DNA of 64,000 nucleotides from an uncultured Candidatus Poseidoniales archaeon (lineage in GTDB: Archaea > Thermoplasmatota > Poseidoniia > Poseidoniales > CAYMED01): the NCBI GenBank assembly GCA_964389655.1, contig CAYMED010000002.1, positions 32,001-96,000 on the forward strand, written 5' to 3'. Positions 30,386 to 42,991 of the stretch are shown here, in pieces (the first letter of the stretch is position 1; each line of letters opens with the position of its first letter). The notes below the pieces were generated by a model. That model was not told where the DNA came from and searched no databases. It saw only the letters and a list, made by a program, of their open reading frames with translations. Both the position numbers and the translations under genes were made by a program.

Positions 30386-31372
30386 TTATTCATCCCCACT
30401 AATTGGTTCTGATTCAACCACTCGAATGGTCATTCTTGCAATTCCAATGCAGAGTCCAACGAGACAAACCCCCGTCATCAAAAATGCAATTAGCGCCCCA
30501 ACTACTGGATTTAGTTGTGCCATCCTCGCAATTTGAAAGGCCCCCACGTCTAGTAAGCAATGAGTAAGAACTGCGGTGGGAAGCCCACGTCGAAGATACA
30601 TCCAACCTAGGACAAACCCTCCAATTGTTGCTGGAAATATTTTCCATATTCCATAAGCAGATAAGTGCAAGCCCCCGAAAACGAGGGAACTTAGGACAAG
30701 TAAAGCAATTGGAAAAGGCGTCCATGGCCTATTCCTAAGTGGCCCTTTCCAAAGGTCCTCTGGGTCACTCTTATTCCCCCTGATTCGATGATATAACCAC
30801 AAAGGAAACCCAATAAGCACCAGACGACTTACAATTTCTTCCCATGCGCCAGCATTCATCATTAATGTCCAAACCATCCCAGGGGGTAATTGTGTAAAAT
30901 CTGGCCCCTCGATGTAAATACCAGTAAGCCATGCAAGTAGCATCGTAACTAAAGATACTAATATCATAATACTGATTGCAAAACCGACCTCCCCCATATT
31001 TGTGTCACTATCATTTCTATTTCGTCTACCGGGATTCGCTTTGTTGAGCGTGTGGAAGAGAAGAAGCATGATCAATAACATCCAAGGCGCCCTCTCCCAG
31101 CCATTCAACACAAACCATACGCTAAGCCCCCCTTCTGAAATGAACGATGGGCCCACAAATTGTAGGGCCTGCCCCCAATCCCCTTCTCTCCAATGAAAAA
31201 GAACATTGATTGTTGGAGTAATCATCAGTGTCAAGAGAGATATACCCCACCAGATATATTCGTTAATCTTGGTAAACAGTTTGATCAACTCACTTTTTCG
31301 CAATATTCTAGCATTCGAAATGCCTATTGTTGCGTGGATTATCCGGGGCTTTCCCCTCCCATCCATAGTCAC
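30386..31372 (-). CDS. CPBP (Abi/CAAX, Rce1-like) intramembrane glutamic protease
   Basis: WEEIVSR (EExxxR), SSLVFGGLH (FxxxH) and THCLLD (HxxxD). Multiple TM helices. Confidence 0.85.
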   Translation of the reverse strand: MTMDGRGKPRIIHATIGISNARILRKSELIKLFTKINEYIWWGISLLTLMITPTINVLFHWREGDWGQALQFVGPSFISEGGLSVWFVLNGWERAPWMLLIMLLLFHTLNKANPGRRNRNDSDTNMGEVGFAISIMILVSLVTMLLAWLTGIYIEGPDFTQLPPGMVWTLMMNAGAWEEIVSRLVLIGFPLWLYHRIRGNKSDPEDLWKGPLRNRPWTPFPIALLVLSSLVFGGLHLSAYGIWKIFPATIGGFVLGWMYLRRGLPTAVLTHCLLDVGAFQIARMAQLNPVVGALIAFLMTGVCLVGLCIGIARMTIRVVESEPISGDE

Positions 31373-31456
31373 TTCCCCCTCCTGCTCGCTGGCTGCCTCA
31401 TCGGTGATGAGTATAAGTGGGGTTACCGATTCGTGTACTTGTCGAATGGTGTCAAC

Positions 31457-32233
31457 ATGAGCGAAGATGAGGCCGAAGAATCTTCAGATGAAATGACTCC
31501 CGAGCAAAACATTGCCCATTTGCAAGAGCGTTTGCTTCAGGAAACAGACCGCTTGACTAAGTTGTTCGATGCGTATGAAGAACAACACAAAGAATTCATT
31601 GATGCCAAAGCAGAGATTGATGTATTGGAGCGAGAAATTGTTGAGAAAGACATTGATCGAGAGGGTCTTGAATCCCTCATCGGCGAGAAAGATGATCGAT
31701 TTAGGGAACTTGAAACGCGTTTTGCCAAATCCAACAAGCGGTTAGAATACTACGAGGTTGAACTTCCAAAAATGGAAGAAAAGTATCAGCGAGAAAAAGA
31801 AAGGTTAGGCCGTGTTTTTGAATTAGCCGAAGAACTTGACGATGACCTCCGGATGGCAGTTGTAGAAATGAAGGCACGAGACGAATGGTATGTTGAACAT
31901 CTGCAACTGTTTGAGGATTTGAATACTGCAATCAAGAAACGATATACTATGGTTGAAGAAGCTCTTGAGACCGAACGAAAAAGTGGACATCGACACAGAG
32001 CACTCGAAGAACGCCTTACTTCCTTGGTGGATGCCCGAGCAGCTGAAATGACAATTGAAGAAGCTGAAAAAGCTCTATCTGATGAAAATGATGATGTAAT
32101 TCCCAAGGCAGATGAGGAATCAGAATCACAAGATAGCGAGACTAATGAGGATGACAAAGAAGACGGGTCCTTAGATGACATCAAATCCACCGAAGAAGCT
32201 GAAGAAACAGATGAGGTTGACGAGACGTCGTAA
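31457..32233 (+). CDS. Acidic long coiled-coil protein, function unknown
   Basis: Start moved to ATG 31457 (MSEDEAEE) to avoid overlap with the divergent CPBP gene. E/K/R-rich heptad pattern over about 190 aa, then an acidic tail. Confidence 0.7.
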   Translation: MSEDEAEESSDEMTPEQNIAHLQERLLQETDRLTKLFDAYEEQHKEFIDAKAEIDVLEREIVEKDIDREGLESLIGEKDDRFRELETRFAKSNKRLEYYEVELPKMEEKYQREKERLGRVFELAEELDDDLRMAVVEMKARDEWYVEHLQLFEDLNTAIKKRYTMVEEALETERKSGHRHRALEERLTSLVDARAAEMTIEEAEKALSDENDDVIPKADEESESQDSETNEDDKEDGSLDDIKSTEEAEETDEVDETS

Positions 32234-33143: not shown

Positions 33144-34280
33144 GTGCAGAAACGAAACACTCTCCTCAAAAAGAGTTCATCTCTCCGTCTACACGACCTC
33201 ATTAAAGCCCCTGAAAATTCAGAATCATCAATTGCTGCTCGGGCCACAATGAATCCTCGGCAACCAGTCACTGTATACAGATCTCCGGAGCGCCTTCCAA
33301 ACGGTCACTTTACAGAAGCATTAACAATTGTACTTCATACAAAGGGATGCCATTGGTGGTGGTCATCTGGCTGTACTTTTTGTGGATACTATAATGATAC
33401 GAGGGATGATATTGGTGCGGATGAACTTGAAGCTCAATGGGCGGCAGCATTTGACGAGGTTGATATGAGTGAGATTGGAATGCTTAAGGTCTATACATCT
33501 GGTTCATTGTTTGAGGACCGTGAGATCCCCCCTTCATTCCAAGATAAAGTTCTGAAAACAGCATCTGAAAATGATTTACACCTTATTGTTGAATCGCGTA
33601 CTGAGCAACTTACTGATGAAAAAATATTTCATGCCACTTCCATCCATTCAGATCTTTGTGTTGCAATTGGGCTTGAGGCACACGATGATGAAGTATTGCA
33701 ATTCCACATTAACAAAGGGTTCACCGTAAAATCTTGGAAGGACGCAGCAGTAAGGCTTCGCACCGCAGGCGTACGCGTAAAGACGTACCTCATGTTCAAA
33801 CCCCCATTTATGTCAGAATATGATTCACTTTCTCACTGCATTAAATGGGTAGGACAAGTGTCACAATATTCTGATGAGATTTCAGTCAATCCGATGAACA
33901 TTCAACGAGGAACCATCATTGATCGAATCCACAGGTCGAAGAGTTACCGCCCCCCTTGGTTGTGGAGTCTCGTGAGATTGATTAAAGAGAGTCATCCTAA
34001 ACTCAACCATTCTGGTAATTTCTCTTCCCGACTCATCGTCCACCCAACGGCGGCAGGAAAAACACGTGGCGCACACAATTGTGGGTCTTGTGATTTTCAA
34101 GTTGCCTCGGCAATTGAAACATACAGCATCGATGGCTGTTTAGATATTTTTGAAGAGCTTGATTGTAATTGTCGTCAAAGATGGATGGAAGAACTCGCAA
34201 TAGAATCCTCTTTACCCATCCCCCTCGGTTTTTCCCTCACACGCCGAGGAGGCTTTCGATACAGAAATCCCCTTACTTGA
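33144..34280 (+). CDS. Archaeosine biosynthesis radical SAM protein RaSEA (TIGR01210 family)
   Basis: GCHWWWSSGCTFCGY (Cx6Cx2C), KVYTSGS, ESR, IGLE, INKGF, KPPF, YRPPWLWS and RGAHNCGSCD. Confidence 0.88.
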   Translation: MQKRNTLLKKSSSLRLHDLIKAPENSESSIAARATMNPRQPVTVYRSPERLPNGHFTEALTIVLHTKGCHWWWSSGCTFCGYYNDTRDDIGADELEAQWAAAFDEVDMSEIGMLKVYTSGSLFEDREIPPSFQDKVLKTASENDLHLIVESRTEQLTDEKIFHATSIHSDLCVAIGLEAHDDEVLQFHINKGFTVKSWKDAAVRLRTAGVRVKTYLMFKPPFMSEYDSLSHCIKWVGQVSQYSDEISVNPMNIQRGTIIDRIHRSKSYRPPWLWSLVRLIKESHPKLNHSGNFSSRLIVHPTAAGKTRGAHNCGSCDFQVASAIETYSIDGCLDIFEELDCNCRQRWMEELAIESSLPIPLGFSLTRRGGFRYRNPLT

Positions 34281-34374: not shown

Positions 34375-34668
34375 TTGAGCGACGGCAAGGAACAGACAAA
34401 CTTCGTTGCTGATGTTTACGTGGGCAGTGATGAGCCACCGATGGCATCAGTTGCAATGGCATTTAGCGTAATTTGCGCCTTTATCTCCCTTATGTTCATC
34501 TCTTTGGTGCTCGGGTGGGATCGCTTACCTGCCCTTGGCTCATTGATTTCGGTATTTTCTAATTTAACCACATCTGGCATATGGTGGTATCTGATTGGGA
34601 TTATTGGGGGTGCAGCTTTGCTGGTGGCAACTTGGCTGGGCGAAGTTGTTGGGAGGGGTGTAGAATGA
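34375..34668 (+). CDS. Small 2-TM membrane protein translationally coupled to the CcoN-like gene
   Basis: Two hydrophobic helices. TTG start preceded by GAGG. The stop overlaps the next ATG (ATGA, 34665-34668). Confidence 0.6.
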   Translation: MSDGKEQTNFVADVYVGSDEPPMASVAMAFSVICAFISLMFISLVLGWDRLPALGSLISVFSNLTTSGIWWYLIGIIGGAALLVATWLGEVVGRGVE

Positions 34669-36806
34669 ACCTTCTTCTCCTATATGCTTGCTATCTTGTT
34701 TGGATGGGAATTGTAGCATTAGTTTGCTCAAGAGGTCTTGGTGCAGCCACAGCCGGGCTCAAAGACTTTGGTAATTTCATGCTTGAAAAAGCACCAGGGC
34801 CCTTGGTTGATTTGATTGAAAACCGGGAAGGCGCGGCTTCTCGCATCTGGATGATGCATGGAGCATTTTGGATGTTTATCGCTTCATCAATAACTTTTGT
34901 ATCAATGTGGTTAGAGCAGGACCCCAAGGCCCTAGACGCTTTCAAATCGTGGGGTTGGGTATATGATTCATCGGGAATGATGGCGGCGTCGCAGGTTTCG
35001 TTTGTATCCGGTGCAGCTTCGATGCTGCTTTTGGGCAGTGCATTCCATGTAACCGAGCGAATGGGTGGAACACGCTTAGTCGGTCAACGCCTTATTGCTT
35101 TGATATCGATTGCCTGGTCACTGCTCACAGTCATAGAGATCATTGCAGCTTTTACTCAATGGACCCACACTTCCATATTATTTCCCGGCCCATGGCAATT
35201 ACAAGTTGTTCATTTATTGTTATCAATACCAATTCTAGTATCATTTGGGTTAACCGGATCTGAGTCTGAACAAGGATCCCGTGACATTTCCACATGGTTT
35301 TTCACGATGGCATCTGCAGCATTAGTATGGGTTTATTGCATATCATCGGCACGTCCATTATTCAATACATCAGAGATTGATTGGCTCTTAGCGAAAGGAC
35401 TTGAGGGTTGGTGGCTATGTGGGCTAGCATTTGGCTTGTTGTCATACATTGTTCCACACAGTGGAACTGGAAGGTTGTGGTCTCGATCGTTAGCTAGCGC
35501 TGGTTTAATCGGTTTAATGGTCTGCATTGTTCCATTTGGATCCTCTATTGAAGTAGCCACCCCCGGTGGTCTTCTCAGGGCAGTTATGCTTTGTCTCATG
35601 GCTCTTTCCTTGCTTCCAATCACCGCAACATCACTGAATATCATTGCAAGTGGCCGTGCATCATTCGGGAAAGGCGGTGGGCCCGGTGTTGTGATTGGCG
35701 TCAGTGCCGCTCTTCTCTTTTTGCTCTGTTCTTTCGGAAGTATTTTCACAAGTGGTGATGCATTTGGTGGTAATGAAGGCTTGGAAGTCTTTAGTGTAGT
35801 TAGCGATCGTGCTTTCCATTATGGGGCCCTTGGAATTACAGCATTGGCAGCATGTTCTGTCATTTGGCCACAAGTAAATGGGCGTCACCTCTTACTCCCG
35901 GGACGCGCCCGAACTGCTTGGCTCATCACTCTTGGTAGCATCATATCTGCTACAGCAGTGGGTGTGGGGGTTGGCATTGCTTCTAAGGCCTTGATTGAAG
36001 GGGGGATTACAGAAAATATACTGCAGAACCCCTCGATTGCAAGTGCGATCCGTGTTGAATCATTTTTGTTCTATGGGGTGATTATTGGATCCTTGGCAAT
36101 GACTGTACAGATGATTACCACGGCCCACCGCGGACCAATCGCAGTTCCACGTGGCTTAGTCATTGAATCTGATGTTTCAGTACCAAGACAAATTGTACCT
36201 GCTGGTGAACACAGCATGCGCAGTTTTCTTTCAATGGGCTTAACTCTTGACACAATTTTAGATTTCAATCCAACCTCTCCGGTTCCAGATATAGGGACAA
36301 CAACCGTTAATCTCGAAGACGAGGAAGATGATGATGATAAGGAAGCGGATGAGGATTGGGATGAAGAAATCGTTCTACTCGCACATCATGTAAAGAGAAG
36401 TTCAATGTCTGTGTTTGAGATATTTCAGCGATTTGATATCAATGGGGATGGTGTCCTTTCTCCATATGAATTTAGGGAGGGTTTAGCTGCATTAGAGATT
36501 GCAAATTTAGATCCATGGGATATGGACCGCATAATTCGAGCAATTGATATCAACCGAGATGGTTCGATAGACCTTCCAGAACTTGATATATTGGTTGCTC
36601 GGATAAATAGGGCAGTTCCAATAAGCCAGCCCACTTCCACCAAAGAGAACCATGCAGTTCCTGTAAAGTCAGAAAACGAATCCCCACATACAGAATCTTC
36701 CTTGAAAAAGAAGACAAAGAACGAACTTGTTGAGATTGCAAACACCCTAGGTGTCTCTCCCAAAGGAACAAAAAGTGACCTAATATCTAATATCCTTTCA
36801 GTCTGA
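34665..36806 (+). CDS. Heme-copper oxidase subunit I (cbb3/CcoN)-like membrane protein lacking canonical His ligands, fused to an EF-hand pair and a SAP/Rho-N-like domain
   Basis: SD GGAGG before ATG 34665. About 13 TM helices with three CcoN-type loop motifs (ERMGGTRL, YIVPHSGTGRLWSRSL, WPQVNGRHL). EF-hands DINGDGVLSPYE and DINRDGSIDLPE. C-terminal LKKKTKNELVEIANTLGVSPKGTKSDLISNIL. Confidence 0.7.
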   Translation: MNLLLLYACYLVWMGIVALVCSRGLGAATAGLKDFGNFMLEKAPGPLVDLIENREGAASRIWMMHGAFWMFIASSITFVSMWLEQDPKALDAFKSWGWVYDSSGMMAASQVSFVSGAASMLLLGSAFHVTERMGGTRLVGQRLIALISIAWSLLTVIEIIAAFTQWTHTSILFPGPWQLQVVHLLLSIPILVSFGLTGSESEQGSRDISTWFFTMASAALVWVYCISSARPLFNTSEIDWLLAKGLEGWWLCGLAFGLLSYIVPHSGTGRLWSRSLASAGLIGLMVCIVPFGSSIEVATPGGLLRAVMLCLMALSLLPITATSLNIIASGRASFGKGGGPGVVIGVSAALLFLLCSFGSIFTSGDAFGGNEGLEVFSVVSDRAFHYGALGITALAACSVIWPQVNGRHLLLPGRARTAWLITLGSIISATAVGVGVGIASKALIEGGITENILQNPSIASAIRVESFLFYGVIIGSLAMTVQMITTAHRGPIAVPRGLVIESDVSVPRQIVPAGEHSMRSFLSMGLTLDTILDFNPTSPVPDIGTTTVNLEDEEDDDDKEADEDWDEEIVLLAHHVKRSSMSVFEIFQRFDINGDGVLSPYEFREGLAALEIANLDPWDMDRIIRAIDINRDGSIDLPELDILVARINRAVPISQPTSTKENHAVPVKSENESPHTESSLKKKTKNELVEIANTLGVSPKGTKSDLISNILSV

Positions 36807-36815
36807 TGATGTTCA

Positions 36816-38093
36816 ATGAGAATTGGTTTGGTTGGAAAACCAAATGTTGGAAAGTCAACATTATTCAGTGCACTAACTGAAACTCCCGTTGAAATAGCGA
36901 ATTATCCTTTCACAACAATTGATCCAAATGTGGGCGTATCATTTGTCAAATCATCTCAACCATGCCCATGCAAAATACGTAGGATCGGTCTTCAAGAAGA
37001 TGGCAGACTAGATTCTTCATCGCTAGATGATCCAAGGCAGGGAAGCCTTTGTAATCCCCGCACAGGAAGCTGTGTCAACTATCATCGTCGTGTTCCTGTA
37101 CACTTGATTGATGTTGCTGGTTTAGTCCCTGGAGCTTCAGAAGGCCGCGGAAGAGGGAATCAATTCCTCTCTGATTTAACACGTGCAGATTTATTGATTC
37201 AGGTGATTGATATTTCGGGCCGCACGAATCTTGAGGGGCAACCAATTGAAAATAACCCACCCGATCCCTTTTCCGAGCATCAATTCCTAGTTGATGAATT
37301 GGATGCGTGGATTTCCAGCCTGATTTCAGATGGTTGGGCTCGAATTGCTAGAAAGGCCCAGGGCGATGGAATTCGGGGAATTGAAAACGCCCTTATTGAA
37401 AAATTATCGGGGTTAGGTGCTAATCGCGCTAATATTCACTTTTCATTATCGAATGCTAAAGACACTCTAAATATGAATGAACCTTGGAATTGGAGCCAAG
37501 TTGAACTTAATTTCCTAGCCAAATTAATACGCCCTTCAATTTATCCAATCGTAATTGCCGCAAATAAAGCAGACGCAGCAGAAAGTGGTGCTGCTGAATC
37601 CCTTTCCTCAAAATTATTGGATCAGAGTATTCCAGTTATTTCAACGAGTGCAGACACAGAACTTGCAATATCCCGGGCACGTTCATCGGGGCTATTGTCC
37701 CTCTCCAATGAATCCCCCCGGCCCCAAATATCTCCTGATGCCGAACCGACTTCAGCCCAAGCAGCAGCCCTGACTCAACTAATTGACCGATGGGAGAAAC
37801 TTGGTGGAACTGGTGTTGATCAATTAATGTCATATGTGGTGTTTGACCATTTGGAACAAATAACGGTCTACCCTGTATCTGATGAAACACATTGGACAGA
37901 TGCAGATGGGAAAATATTGCCTGATGCGCATTTAATGATCAAGGGGAGCACAGCTCGTGATCTTGCTTATTCCGTCCATTCAGACTTTGGTGAGGGCTTT
38001 ATCCGAGCGATTGATGGACGAACAGGGCGCACATTGGGTGCCGAACACGAATTACTAGATGGTGATGTGATACGCATTCATGCCCGAACATAG
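36816..38093 (+). CDS. ychF: Obg-family ATPase/GTPase YchF (archaeal type) with TGS domain
   Basis: GKPNVGKST, NYPFTTIDPN, CPC...CNP...C insert, DVAGLVPGA, ANKAD, and TGS TARDLAYSVHSDFG. Confidence 0.92.
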   Translation: MRIGLVGKPNVGKSTLFSALTETPVEIANYPFTTIDPNVGVSFVKSSQPCPCKIRRIGLQEDGRLDSSSLDDPRQGSLCNPRTGSCVNYHRRVPVHLIDVAGLVPGASEGRGRGNQFLSDLTRADLLIQVIDISGRTNLEGQPIENNPPDPFSEHQFLVDELDAWISSLISDGWARIARKAQGDGIRGIENALIEKLSGLGANRANIHFSLSNAKDTLNMNEPWNWSQVELNFLAKLIRPSIYPIVIAANKADAAESGAAESLSSKLLDQSIPVISTSADTELAISRARSSGLLSLSNESPRPQISPDAEPTSAQAAALTQLIDRWEKLGGTGVDQLMSYVVFDHLEQITVYPVSDETHWTDADGKILPDAHLMIKGSTARDLAYSVHSDFGEGFIRAIDGRTGRTLGAEHELLDGDVIRIHART

Positions 38094-39589: not shown

Positions 39590-42500
39590 TTATTCTTCGT
39601 GCTGTAACCAATCATGCACGCCAGGTCTTCTATACCAAAGGTTTCCACTACCTGCGGGGTGCTCCATCCATTCAATCCCACTTTCATCGACAATGACTGA
39701 ATCGTAAGCCTCTTCACCATATTCTTCTGCCTCTTCAAACGCATCCATGTCTATCCGGCCAGTTCGAAGTATTAGCACAAAGAGAACAGCCATACCAATT
39801 AACACAAAACCAGCAAGTGCGACAATAACGATGGCTCCACCCCCATTATTTTCTTCGGTCTGTGCCTGAGATGCTCGGCTTAGGCTTGCCTTTTCTCCAC
39901 TATTGGTGGTTGTATTTTCAGTACCTATATTACTCGATTCTGGCGTGGTCGAAGCACTATTGTCTTCTAACCCAGTAATGTCAGGGTTACTCGGGTCAGC
40001 ATCATTCTCATCAGATACTCCATCCCCATCTCTATCGGGACAACCGTACCGGTCGATCCAAGATGTCCCCTTGAATGCGGGACAGGCATCGGGTTCTATT
40101 CCATCCGGATTATCTCCGTAGTCATCCTCATCTCGATTTTCCCATTGTGTCTTTTCATTTGGAAATGCATCAGCTCCATCGGCCCAATGATCTCCATCCC
40201 CATCTAGGCACCCCAACAACCCTTTCGTTGATGTTCCAGCAACTTTTGGACAATCATCGAAAGGTGCAACCGCACTTGCAGCGAACTCAGGGTCGTCCCA
40301 ACCATCATTATCCCAATCTAATGGCCATTGGTCCGCATTATTTGCACCAGGGAGCCATTCACCAGGATAACTTTCAACTCTTTCTTGATGCCACATAGGA
40401 CTTCCATAATTATCTCCGAGCCCATCTCGATCGGTGTCATTCCACTGGGTTGGATCGTCGAAAAATGCATCTGCGCCATTATCTATCGTCCAATCTGCTG
40501 TTGGATTAGATGCCCCGTCCCCGTCCTGGTCTGGACATCCAAAGCGATCAATATACGATGTGCCATGCTCATTCACGCAGCCATCCGGCTCAAACCCATC
40601 TGCCTCATCTCCAAAGCCATCTCCATCCCTATCTTCCCATTGTGTGGGTTCAGATGGAAATGCGTCTATTTTGTTTGCACCAATTGATTGATTATCACCC
40701 CATCCATCCCCATCGAGGTCTGACCACTGAGTTGGTTCATTTGGTAGTGCATCAGATTGCGACGCTCCTTTTGTTTGATTATCACCCCACCCATCTCCGT
40801 CACTATCTGAGTGTTGGGTTGGGTTCATCGGAAATGCATCACCGAATGGATGATCCGACCACCCATCGAGATCAGTATCTGGGCAACCATATCCATCTAG
40901 TGCAATTCCTCCGGCTTCAAATGGGCATCCATCAGGTTGGTGGGCCCCAATATGGAATTGACCAATGACGGGAGTTTCTGATTCCCGCATGTCCGTCCAA
41001 GACGAATCAGCCCAATTATCTCCATATCCATCCTCATCCATATCAGCCCATTGTGTCTTTTCGTTTGGAAACGCATCGCCCCCATCATCCTTTGTCCACC
41101 CGCTATCAGTATTGGAATATCCATCCTCATCTGAGTCAAGACAACCTAGTCGGTCGGCCGAAGAAGTTCCCGCAATTGTCGGGCACGCGTCCCCATTATG
41201 TCCACCCGATTCATCGCCCCATCCATCCCCATCTGAGTCGGCCCATTGGGTGCCGTCCCCTGGAAATTCATCATTTGTATCAGCCCATCCGTCGCCATCT
41301 GAATCTACACATCCTAGAACATTACCTTTTGAGGAGGTTCCCGCAATTGTTGGACAGCTGTCAACATTATCCCCAAACCCATCCCCATCAGAATCAGCAA
41401 CCATGCGCCAAATAAATCCGTCAGACCCTCCGTTGTTTGTAAGAGTAAGATCACCAATTGTTGTTGGTGATGTTCCATTTCCGCCAAATAATCCCACAGC
41501 ATAAATAGTTCCAGAAGAATCAATTGTGATATCGACCCCTTGATCATCATTGGTGCTTCCAGTTGCAATAACTTCTGTCCACGCACCCGTGGTATCAAAT
41601 GATAGAATTAGGATGTCAGATCCGCCTTGAGGTGAAATTGTTTTTGTTCCAGAACCTGAAATTGGGATCGATATGGACGTACTATCAAAAGAGGCGGCAA
41701 ACCACACATCACCTGACGATTCTGCCTCAATACCATATCCGTATTCATCCCCTCCTCCCCCCAAACTCATAATCCAAGATGGATTTCCTGAAGTGGCAGT
41801 TATGGAAGCAACAAACAAGTCACTTCCTCCAGCATTTGATGCACTTTTTGATCCCAAATTTATTGACCCTCCATCATAGGAACCAGATGCAAATACATTA
41901 CCGGACGAATCAACTTCTAATCCTTCAATAGATTCATCCCCTGTCCCTGATATTTGGGATGTCCAACTAACCACTTGGTTGGATGGATTAATACGGACAA
42001 GAAGGGAGTCTTGTCCCCCAGTACTTGTATGTGATTTACCCCATATGTTGGCAGTTTCTTCAAAAAGAATTGAAATAACAGTTTCCTGCGAACCTATTTC
42101 TTCCATTTCAACACCCAAATCACCTCCCGCACCCCCTGCTGTTGAGATCCAAGTCCATGATCCAGATGTGGTAAGGCCCCCAAAAAACACATCAAGTGTT
42201 GTTTGTCCCGTAGCATCCGTATTCGATGTAATGGATTTTGATCCCACAGTCATGGTTTCAGCATACGTTCCTAGAACGACTACCTCGTTACCGATTAATT
42301 CCACATCAAATAATGCGCCAGCACCACCATTTCCGAAGGATGAAGTATCATATGGAATACTTTCTGCCCACGACCAAACACCGTTTGAATTAATTTTGGC
42401 AACCCACCCATTCAAGATCCAATCAGAGTGTCCTTGAATTGTTGTTGAACCAAATGTAGTGGATGGTGAGGTGTAGGTGGTGATGTCTTGACTATATCCA

Positions 42501-42991
42501 GCAACATATGCATTACCCTGTGCATCGACTGTAATTCCGAATGCGCGGTCATTGGTTGAACCTCCTGCTTTTGCGGCCCACACCCATTGCCCAGTCGCAG
42601 TCATCCTAGCAATGAATACATCATAATCTCCAGAACTTGAAAGGGTGGTGGAGCCAAAAGATGCAGTGTCACTGAATAACCCTATGAGCCAAATATCCCC
42701 ATTAGGGCCAGTAACTGATTTTAGGATCAAATCTTCACCAGAACCTCCCATTCCTTCTGCCCAACTCGCCGCAGTTCCACTGGCGCGTGCGCTAACTTGG
42801 CTAAATACGAGATCTCTCCTCTCTAAATCAATCGATTCAAAGTCTTGGATTGCATCTTTAATCACAGCATCCGGTCCCGTAATAGCTGTTTCAGCGGCAG
42901 CAAGGATTGAAAGAGAAAGAAATCCTATGATTACCGCGAAAGAACGGCGCGCTGCGTAGCATCTAGTGGACATAGCCAAGCCCCTGATCAT
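39590..42991 (-). CDS. Membrane-anchored surface protein: SBBP-like beta-propeller plus thrombospondin type-3-like Ca-binding repeats
   Basis: Signal peptide. Propeller repeats (GITVDAQGNAYVAG, GLEVDSSGNVFASG, DITIDSSGTIYAVG). Many DxFPxxxTQWxDxDGDGWGD and GCxDxDGDG repeats. C-terminal TM. Confidence 0.85.
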   Translation of the reverse strand: MIRGLAMSTRCYAARRSFAVIIGFLSLSILAAAETAITGPDAVIKDAIQDFESIDLERRDLVFSQVSARASGTAASWAEGMGGSGEDLILKSVTGPNGDIWLIGLFSDTASFGSTTLSSSGDYDVFIARMTATGQWVWAAKAGGSTNDRAFGITVDAQGNAYVAGYSQDITTYTSPSTTFGSTTIQGHSDWILNGWVAKINSNGVWSWAESIPYDTSSFGNGGAGALFDVELIGNEVVVLGTYAETMTVGSKSITSNTDATGQTTLDVFFGGLTTSGSWTWISTAGGAGGDLGVEMEEIGSQETVISILFEETANIWGKSHTSTGGQDSLLVRINPSNQVVSWTSQISGTGDESIEGLEVDSSGNVFASGSYDGGSINLGSKSASNAGGSDLFVASITATSGNPSWIMSLGGGGDEYGYGIEAESSGDVWFAASFDSTSISIPISGSGTKTISPQGGSDILILSFDTTGAWTEVIATGSTNDDQGVDITIDSSGTIYAVGLFGGNGTSPTTIGDLTLTNNGGSDGFIWRMVADSDGDGFGDNVDSCPTIAGTSSKGNVLGCVDSDGDGWADTNDEFPGDGTQWADSDGDGWGDESGGHNGDACPTIAGTSSADRLGCLDSDEDGYSNTDSGWTKDDGGDAFPNEKTQWADMDEDGYGDNWADSSWTDMRESETPVIGQFHIGAHQPDGCPFEAGGIALDGYGCPDTDLDGWSDHPFGDAFPMNPTQHSDSDGDGWGDNQTKGASQSDALPNEPTQWSDLDGDGWGDNQSIGANKIDAFPSEPTQWEDRDGDGFGDEADGFEPDGCVNEHGTSYIDRFGCPDQDGDGASNPTADWTIDNGADAFFDDPTQWNDTDRDGLGDNYGSPMWHQERVESYPGEWLPGANNADQWPLDWDNDGWDDPEFAASAVAPFDDCPKVAGTSTKGLLGCLDGDGDHWADGADAFPNEKTQWENRDEDDYGDNPDGIEPDACPAFKGTSWIDRYGCPDRDGDGVSDENDADPSNPDITGLEDNSASTTPESSNIGTENTTTNSGEKASLSRASQAQTEENNGGGAIVIVALAGFVLIGMAVLFVLILRTGRIDMDAFEEAEEYGEEAYDSVIVDESGIEWMEHPAGSGNLWYRRPGVHDWLQHEE

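Follow-up and report, generated by a model that had tools for sequence, protein, structure and literature searches.

A CcoN-like membrane protein family lacking haem and copper ligands, encoded with a small membrane partner in the archaeal order Poseidoniales

Few membrane enzymes have been studied as thoroughly as the haem-copper oxidases (HCOs), whose six histidine ligands are treated as defining. The closest described relatives of the protein considered here are the C-family (cbb3-type) catalytic subunits CcoN/FixN, represented by structures from P. stutzeri (3MK7/5DJQ), R. capsulatus (6XKW) and P. aeruginosa (8SMR), followed by the cNOR subunit NorB, its second-best structural match (Z 36.2). 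The nitric oxide reductase (NOR)-type families likewise departed from O2 reduction, and a preprint on HCO diversity (10.1101/2021.10.15.464467) presents gNOR as without precedent among HCO families in replacing even a single active-site histidine. Here we describe a pair of genes at positions 34375-36806 of a 64,000-nucleotide (nt) stretch of DNA from an uncultured Candidatus Poseidoniales archaeon (contig CAYMED010000002.1), referred to throughout as the window and providing the frame for our coordinates. The larger gene (P0001; 34665-36806 on the plus strand, stop codon included) encodes a CcoN homologue of 713 amino acids (aa). In contrast to the NORs, which retain both haems and a metal site with at most one histidine replaced, the family to which this protein belongs retains none of the ligands.

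The 12-helix fold and the membrane orientation are common to CcoN and the Poseidoniales protein, as are several motifs, namely TLAxR...WF at transmembrane (TM) helices 4/5, W...G at the top of TM6, WS/YS...L in loop 6-7, a proline before the former HH pair, P..(A/G)...N...T in TM8 and YP...GR after TM10. Unlike CcoN, the family is archaeal and restricted to one order, has no haem b, haem b3 or CuB ligands, no cross-link tyrosine and no CcoO, CcoP or CcoQ, and carries in addition an extra N-terminal TM helix, a conserved C-terminal module, optional EF-hand and SAP tails and a dedicated partner with two TM helices.

Homology to CcoN and loss of the cofactor ligands

The link to CcoN was exposed only by profiles and structure, and not by single-sequence searches. 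With the single sequence, Pfam gave no match for the TM part even at E up to 1, NCBIfam and phmmer against the Protein Data Bank (PDB) returned only EF-hand relatives (calmodulins in the PDB) and nothing for the TM domain, and phmmer with the TM domain against 1.8 billion representatives yielded 64 matches, all apparently family members or fragments. We therefore worked from an alignment of this protein and 27 orthologues drawn from the genomes of relatives (alignment A1, 28 sequences). Searched against all PDB sequences, the A1 profile produced five significant matches, each spanning approximately 330-375 profile positions and each a cbb3 oxidase subunit I (9g6b_A, E 1.1e-13; 3mk7_A, 3.1e-13; then 8smr_E, 6xkw_n and 9g83_t, the weakest at E 2.3e-10). 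Pfam COX1 was reached unaided by two of the 28 members (best E 5.2e-7). In a profile search of 5.8 billion proteins, a single weak match fell beyond the family, to a fused cbb3 subunit I/II (E 1.3e-6), and the nearest language-model neighbours were the family's own clusters followed by COX1 clusters.

Structural comparison gave the same answer. The AlphaFold2 model of residues 1-530 was confident (predicted local distance difference test score (pLDDT) 83.7, predicted template modelling score 0.85), and Foldseek against the PDB ranked seven CcoN chains first (target-normalised template modelling score 0.76-0.83, probability 1.00). By VIA-align, chain 3mk7_A superposed over 424 residues (Z 40.6, root-mean-square deviation 2.5 A), all ten top matches were subunit I of an HCO or NOR, HCO/NOR subunits other than CcoN and NorB scored Z 25-30, and the first unrelated chain appeared only at Z 10. 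The TM core (residues 57-489, 34833-36131) is thus a true CcoN homologue of the HCO superfamily, its fold assignment is secure, and its nearest branch is the C-family/cNOR side. The first-pass annotation, made from the letters of the sequence alone, had read this region as a CcoN-like scaffold stripped of its metal ligands; the profile match, the superposition and the ligand mapping below all bear this out, and the fold searches that it proposed against CcoN and NorB placed the region in the HCO fold. NnrS (PF05940), also proposed for comparison, had no match at E up to 1 in the 28 members and no NnrS entry surfaced in either PDB fold search; given the strong CcoN match, NnrS is unnecessary as an explanation.

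The model contains 13 TM helices, that is, the 12-helix HCO core preceded by an N-terminal helix, TM0 (residues 2-22), so that the earlier count of about 12 holds for the core but falls one short for the protein. TM0 and two cytoplasmic amphipathic helices (30-41 and 45-50) make up an N-terminal segment (residues 1-56, 34665-34832, plus strand), delimited from the models and from invariant columns, in which G24 and F38 are invariant and K42 is invariant or nearly so. With the orientation of CcoN imposed, lysine plus arginine averaged 13.1 on the predicted inside loops versus 0.75 outside; this places the N-terminus outside and the entire C-terminal tail in the cytoplasm.

Mapped through the HMMER alignment to P. 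stutzeri CcoN, whose numbering is given first in each case, every metal ligand is replaced in the window protein. The haem b ligand H60 corresponds to S109, the CuB ligand H207 to K244, the CuB ligands H257/H258 to F291/G292, the haem b3 ligand H345 to S380 and the haem b ligand H347 to R382. The cross-link tyrosine Y251 sits in an insert region of that alignment and has no aligned column, and its assignment to M285 rests on a manual, gap-free count from the aligned Pro256/P290. The register is identical to that of the CcoN alignment made by eye in the first-pass annotation, which had left the last site between VSDRAFHYG and RAFHYGALG and so allowed for one retained histidine; the former pairing is correct, H385 does not correspond to a ligand and no histidine is kept.

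The same loss runs through the family. Histidine was found in none of the 28 sequences at the H60, H257, H258 and H345 columns and in one at the H347 column, the H345 column being V/L/I/M across the family and the Y251 column F/L and never tyrosine. The H207 column is composed largely of basic residues (R in nine, H in eight and K in six, 23 of the 28 in total). Most former histidine columns are mainly hydrophobic or glycine (F/L/V/I/M/G), H207 being cationic and H347 mixed. No column of the TM domain holds histidine in more than half of the orthologues, some members have just two or three histidines in the entire domain, and no cysteine or methionine column reaches 80%, the initiator methionine excepted. 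Residues conserved in at least 80% are mainly tryptophan (positions 62, 69, 82, 211, 240, 272 and 420), proline, glycine, Asn193 and Thr197, together with Ser273, Asn325, Thr329 and Tyr470. Asn325 and Thr329 lie in TM8 and align with Asn289 and Thr293 of CcoN (HMMER). Charged residues conserved at that level are missing from the middle of the TM helices; E141 sits at the cytoplasmic start of TM3.

The low-spin haem histidine pair, the proximal histidine, the three CuB/FeB histidines and the tyrosine that characterize a catalytically competent HCO are all missing. This loss of every haem and CuB ligand and of the cross-link tyrosine indicates that the protein cannot bind the ancestral cofactors and cannot reduce O2 or NO. 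Nor was an oxidase complex found around it. As first noted from the window alone, ccoO and ccoP are not nearby, and FixO/CcoO (PF02433) was not found in the 93%-complete assembly, ccoP having been looked for only in the neighbourhood and not genome-wide. The organism does encode a separate COX2-COX1-COX3 operon on another contig (COX1 E 3.5e-145). Hhalign of the family against this A-type COX1 gave nothing significant, with only a YPxxTGR motif after TM10 in common, and on this null result we rejected the idea that the family is a recent copy of that working oxidase.

Conservation across Poseidoniales, gene context and cytoplasmic tails

A full-length match to the family profile was found in 62 of the 63 other Poseidoniales genomes sampled, whereas none of approximately 238 other genomes of the phylum (eight from the sister family, which belongs to the same class, and approximately 230 others) matched at E up to 1e-5. 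Reading frames were intact in nearly all of the 62 genomes, and dN/dS was 0.03-0.09 both in the TM part and in the tail (pairs with dS 0.4-0.7). The first-pass annotation had asked whether orthologues keep the ligands while this copy drifts; none of them retains the ligand set, the family is conserved across the order and there is no sign of neutral decay. The gene family is intact, strongly constrained, specific to the order Poseidoniales and paired with a small membrane protein.

The small gene (34375-34668, plus strand) begins with TTG and encodes 97 aa with two TM helices. The longest open frame of the large gene runs from 34581, and its real start is the ATG at 34665, the point at which all orthologues begin in the alignment; this ATG overlaps the TGA stop of the small gene as ATGA, supporting the translational coupling previously proposed. 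Immediately ahead of the large gene, 27 of the 28 loci scanned carry an open reading frame of 85-125 aa with two TM helices, separated from it by 1-25 nt or overlapping it. Its products share a G..EP motif before TM1 and GIWxxLxGxxxG in TM2, with P21, P52, W70, G75 and G79 invariant among 26 aligned sequences (alignment A4). From this near-universal and tightly coupled adjacency we infer that the two-helix protein is an obligate partner of the large subunit. It had no Pfam, NCBIfam or PDB match, its profile found nothing meaningful in the PDB, and it lacks a CxxCH motif; derivation from the membrane anchors of CcoO or CcoP was considered and could not be supported.

Beyond TM12 every orthologue, including those without any further tail, carries a conserved cytoplasmic module (residues 508-535, 36186-36269, plus strand) modelled with moderate confidence as a beta-hairpin and a short helix (pLDDT 63-72). 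Its family motif is TTIRxLLxxGVGxDT, read in this protein as MRSFLSMGLTLDT, with T530 invariant and R519, G525 and D529 nearly so. In the window protein the module is followed by an acidic linker that is predicted to be disordered (residues 550-568, 36312-36368, plus strand; pLDDT below 50 at 542-562) and by an EF-hand pair (residues 567-650, 36363-36614, plus strand; pLDDT above 92) with calmodulin matches in the PDB. Pfam recognized the pair as EF-hand_1 (E 5e-11 at residues 584-640, 41.8 bits against a cut-off of 25.4) and EF-hand_7 (E 1.1e-7). Loop 1, DINGDGVLSPYE (residues 591-602, nt 36435-36470), and loop 2, DINRDGSIDLPE (residues 628-639, nt 36546-36581), both fit the 12-residue pattern of D1, D/N3, D/S5, G6, a hydrophobic residue at 8 and E12, so that the acidic linker and two canonical EF-hands of the first reading were confirmed.

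The protein ends in a SAP-like helix-extension-helix (HeH) tail (residues 677-712, 36693-36800, plus strand; pLDDT approximately 95). Its likeness to SAP/Rho-N domains, also read from the sequence at first, is suggested by the model and by relatives and less so by the protein's own Pfam scores, which stayed below the cut-offs at residues 680-711 (SAP E 0.016, 15.2 bits against 23.9; Rho_N E 0.0037, 17.6 bits against 24.9). SAP matches at E no higher than 1 were obtained for the aligned tails of eight relatives, the best of them with E 9.5e-9. In the full-length model (pLDDT 84.9), the EF pair and the helix-extension-helix (685-712) form separate confident domains on disordered linkers, the SAP-like helices spanning 685-695 and 703-712.

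Tails were modular among the 28 orthologues. Eleven had none beyond the 508-535 module, three had SAP only, eight had the EF pair only and six, including this protein, had both, giving totals of 14 for the EF pair and nine for SAP. One relative placed a coiled-coil between the EF pair and SAP, and another had an HhH-like insert (weak HHH_5 match, E 0.095). The EF pair was present throughout Poseidoniaceae and the window's own small family and absent from every sampled member of a third family, presumably Thalassarchaeaceae. As judged from these domain matches, the EF-hand pair and the SAP tail are optional, lineage-specific cytoplasmic add-ons. Eukaryotic LEM/HeH proteins of the inner nuclear membrane and EF-hand-regulated channels likewise tether an HeH module or a Ca2+-binding pair to a membrane anchor through disordered linkers, an analogy only, since their membrane domains are unrelated and Ca2+ and DNA binding are predicted activities in the present case.

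EF-hand modules are spread through other Poseidoniales proteins as well. Within the genome CM001443.1 of Marine Group II (MGII, the Poseidoniales), the tail's EF pair finds its best match outside the orthologue in an 802-aa A/V-type ATPase subunit I (PF01496; L079:1480-3885), which has an internal EF pair at 338-396. Open reading frames of 789-870 aa with the same EF-pair match occur in other Poseidoniaceae genomes, and the subunit I of the window's own genome (a 741-aa frame on contig C8) has no EF-hand match. A further example in CM001443.1 is a 614-aa protein with a double zinc ribbon and two EF-hand pairs (L080:1226-3067). The window also encodes a 1133-aa protein (39590-42991, minus strand) that is rich in acidic repeats of the DxDxDGxxD type, resembling by eye the calcium-binding motifs of thrombospondin type 3, and that ends in a hydrophobic anchor; it looks like an extracellular Ca2+-binding surface protein.

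The gene pair is flanked on the plus strand by RaSEA, an archaeosine radical-SAM protein (33144-34280; TIGR01210, E 7.8e-84), and by a YchF-related GTPase (36816-38093; NF007171, E 7.9e-126) that begins 9 nt past the stop codon. The order RaSEA, two-helix gene, large gene and GTPase was kept in the Poseidoniales loci examined, with RaSEA upstream in 28 of 28 loci. RaSEA, its conserved position notwithstanding, is probably outside the system. The gap to the GTPase gene measured 2-70 nt in 24 of 26 loci, which makes co-transcription with the large gene plausible. Genomes of the sister family have an unrelated CARDB-type surface protein ahead of the GTPase gene and RaSEA at another place, and the two flanking genes are not neighbours there. 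We take the arrangement to be synteny passed down by descent and not a clear sign of joint function; links to the YchF-like GTPase and to RaSEA were considered, and synteny across the order gave no mechanistic lead. Further upstream, a highly acidic and apparently coiled-coil protein of 346 aa without a family match (31193-32233, plus strand) is kept ahead of the PSD-RaSEA genes in several relatives.

Candidate functions of the emptied fold

The large subunit descends from a C-family (cbb3-type) catalytic subunit and retains its fold and membrane topology. We consider it fairly probable that it and the two-helix protein form a non-redox membrane complex peculiar to Poseidoniales, which works as a platform bearing lineage-specific tails. 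For the mechanism itself, drawn from sequence and models, we put the chances at roughly even. The cofactor-free oxidase core would act as a rigid membrane platform and not as a pore, and its working surface would be the conserved cytoplasmic face formed by the amphipathic helices with F38/K42, the W272-S273 loop and the TTIRxLLxxGxGxDT module. The EF pair, coiled-coil, HhH and SAP/HeH elements would then be lineage-specific additions that, in some clades and in this genome, could let the platform respond to Ca2+ and keep DNA or some other partner close to the membrane. A platform is preferred over a pore because most former ligand positions are hydrophobic or small, suggesting filled pockets, because no residue charged in at least 80% of members lies in the middle of a TM helix, and because the Ca2+ module that would gate a pore is missing in half of the family. 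Several observations weigh against the platform. A cationic residue persists at the former CuB position (R/H/K in 23 of 28), the conservation of Asn325/Thr329 with CcoN in TM8 may mark a remnant polar path, and the consistently short spacing to the gene of the YchF-related GTPase might stem from an unexplained functional link.

The first two of these observations would also favour a conduit. The HCO fold contains three pseudo-symmetric pores, two of which are vacated on haem loss, and the emptied haem pockets could conduct ions or protons or serve as a secondary transporter. Gating by cytoplasmic Ca2+ would then fall to the EF-hands, which in the model hang beneath the cytoplasmic face on a flexible acidic linker. 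The EF pair found in the A-type ATPase subunit I of the Iverson MGII genome (Poseidoniaceae), with matching open reading frames of similar size in relatives, would fit such a role, in that Ca2+ control of ion-motive machines may be recurrent in these archaea. We nevertheless judge a gated conduit unlikely. The EF-hands are missing from 14 of the 28 orthologues, one whole family included, and SAP from 19; the core function is therefore independent of Ca2+ and of nucleic acid, and neither the Ca2+ gating nor the nucleic-acid contact envisaged in the first-pass annotation can be central to the family. The conduit that it proposed fits poorly with the mostly hydrophobic former ligand positions, the lack of conserved mid-membrane charge and the fate of the cbb3 proton-channel residues, which we take to be T215, Y223, S240, H243, Y317 and E323 together with a TM8 asparagine presumably belonging to the proton input channel; apart from the TM8 Asn/Thr pair these positions are not conserved. 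The ATP synthase of MGII archaea is putatively coupled to Na+ (PMC6336850), and Mrp is reportedly missing from them (PMC9258230). The idea that the protein is a missing Na+/H+ antiporter was weakened by a CPA-type Na+/H+ exchanger in the organism's own genome, which leaves no obvious gap for a conduit to fill. A broader proposal, in which the vacated HCO fold has become a new membrane machine, either a Ca2+-controlled ion or proton conduit through the haem pores or a tether between membrane and nucleoid, seems doubtful to us; if true, it would represent a function never seen for the HCO superfamily, carried by a signature gene of an archaeal order that ranks among the most abundant in the ocean.

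Other explanations keep the protein closer to respiration. It could be a relic subunit docked on the respiratory chain (cytochrome b/Rieske or the aa3-type oxidase), or it could bind a hydrophobic molecule, for example a quinone, lipid or tetrapyrrole, in the former haem pockets, for which its hydrophobic interior would be suited. Also in favour of this reading, MGII archaea have an unusual cytochrome b and Rieske arrangement with no canonical bc1 complex (PMC6336850). Either role is improbable in our view, as no c-type cytochrome partner is apparent, FixO not having been found in the 93%-complete assembly and CxxCH being absent from the two-helix protein, and as the cox, cytochrome b and Rieske genes lie unlinked on other contigs while the neighbours of the pair are housekeeping genes (RaSEA and the YchF-like GTPase). 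A working, high-affinity cbb3-type oxidase subunit, which the real homology to CcoN and the label on one database record would favour, has next to no probability given the family-wide loss of the six-histidine set and the cross-link tyrosine, the two or three histidines left in the TM domain of some orthologues, and the failure to find CcoO in the genome or ccoP nearby. Equally little speaks for a decaying pseudogene or chance reading frame. Apart from the loss of catalytic residues nothing supports decay, and it is at odds with the intact frames in nearly all 62 genomes, dN/dS of 0.03-0.09, the confident model and the conserved partner and synteny. On the sequence evidence, both a genuine oxidase and a decaying pseudogene are excluded.

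The only cytochrome b (PF13631) match in the organism's own genome (contig C9:10128-10484) falls inside an open frame of 1632 aa, an indication that cytochrome b is here part of a very large fusion protein.

Annotation of the family and implications for Marine Group II

A CcoN-type label on one member of the family is already on record. EHR75896.1, from an MGII genome of 2012, is named 'putative cb-type cytochrome c oxidase subunit I', and other orthologues are recorded as hypothetical, EF-hand or SAP domain-containing proteins. The MGII genomics papers PMC6461757 and PMC6336850 do not mention this protein, and a survey of archaeal lineage-specific families only notes calcium-binding domains in Poseidoniales-specific modules (PMC9258230). 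Our literature search, outside which many subscription papers fell, found no account of a ligand-free HCO family or of this MGII protein. The statement in the first-pass annotation that no such system had been described thus holds for the literature searched and is tempered by the GenBank record. The family represents a cofactor-less, repurposed form of the HCO subunit. The 90%-identity cluster that contains the orthologue of the MGII genome (L010:2974-4950) also holds many 430-aa YchF-type GTPases; this mixed cluster is probably an artefact of gene calls that fused adjacent genes, and it could mislead automated annotation.

As an order-specific gene pair, the two genes offer a clean phylogenetic marker, and with only two genes and a confident model they are a tractable target for studying a cofactor-free oxidase shell. 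Marine Group II remains uncultured and its physiology is read from annotation alone, such that cb-type oxidase labels could falsely imply high-affinity oxygen respiration in these archaea. Ultimately, the loss of all ligands under strong selection in nearly every Poseidoniales genome points to a second, non-redox life of the haem-copper oxidase fold.

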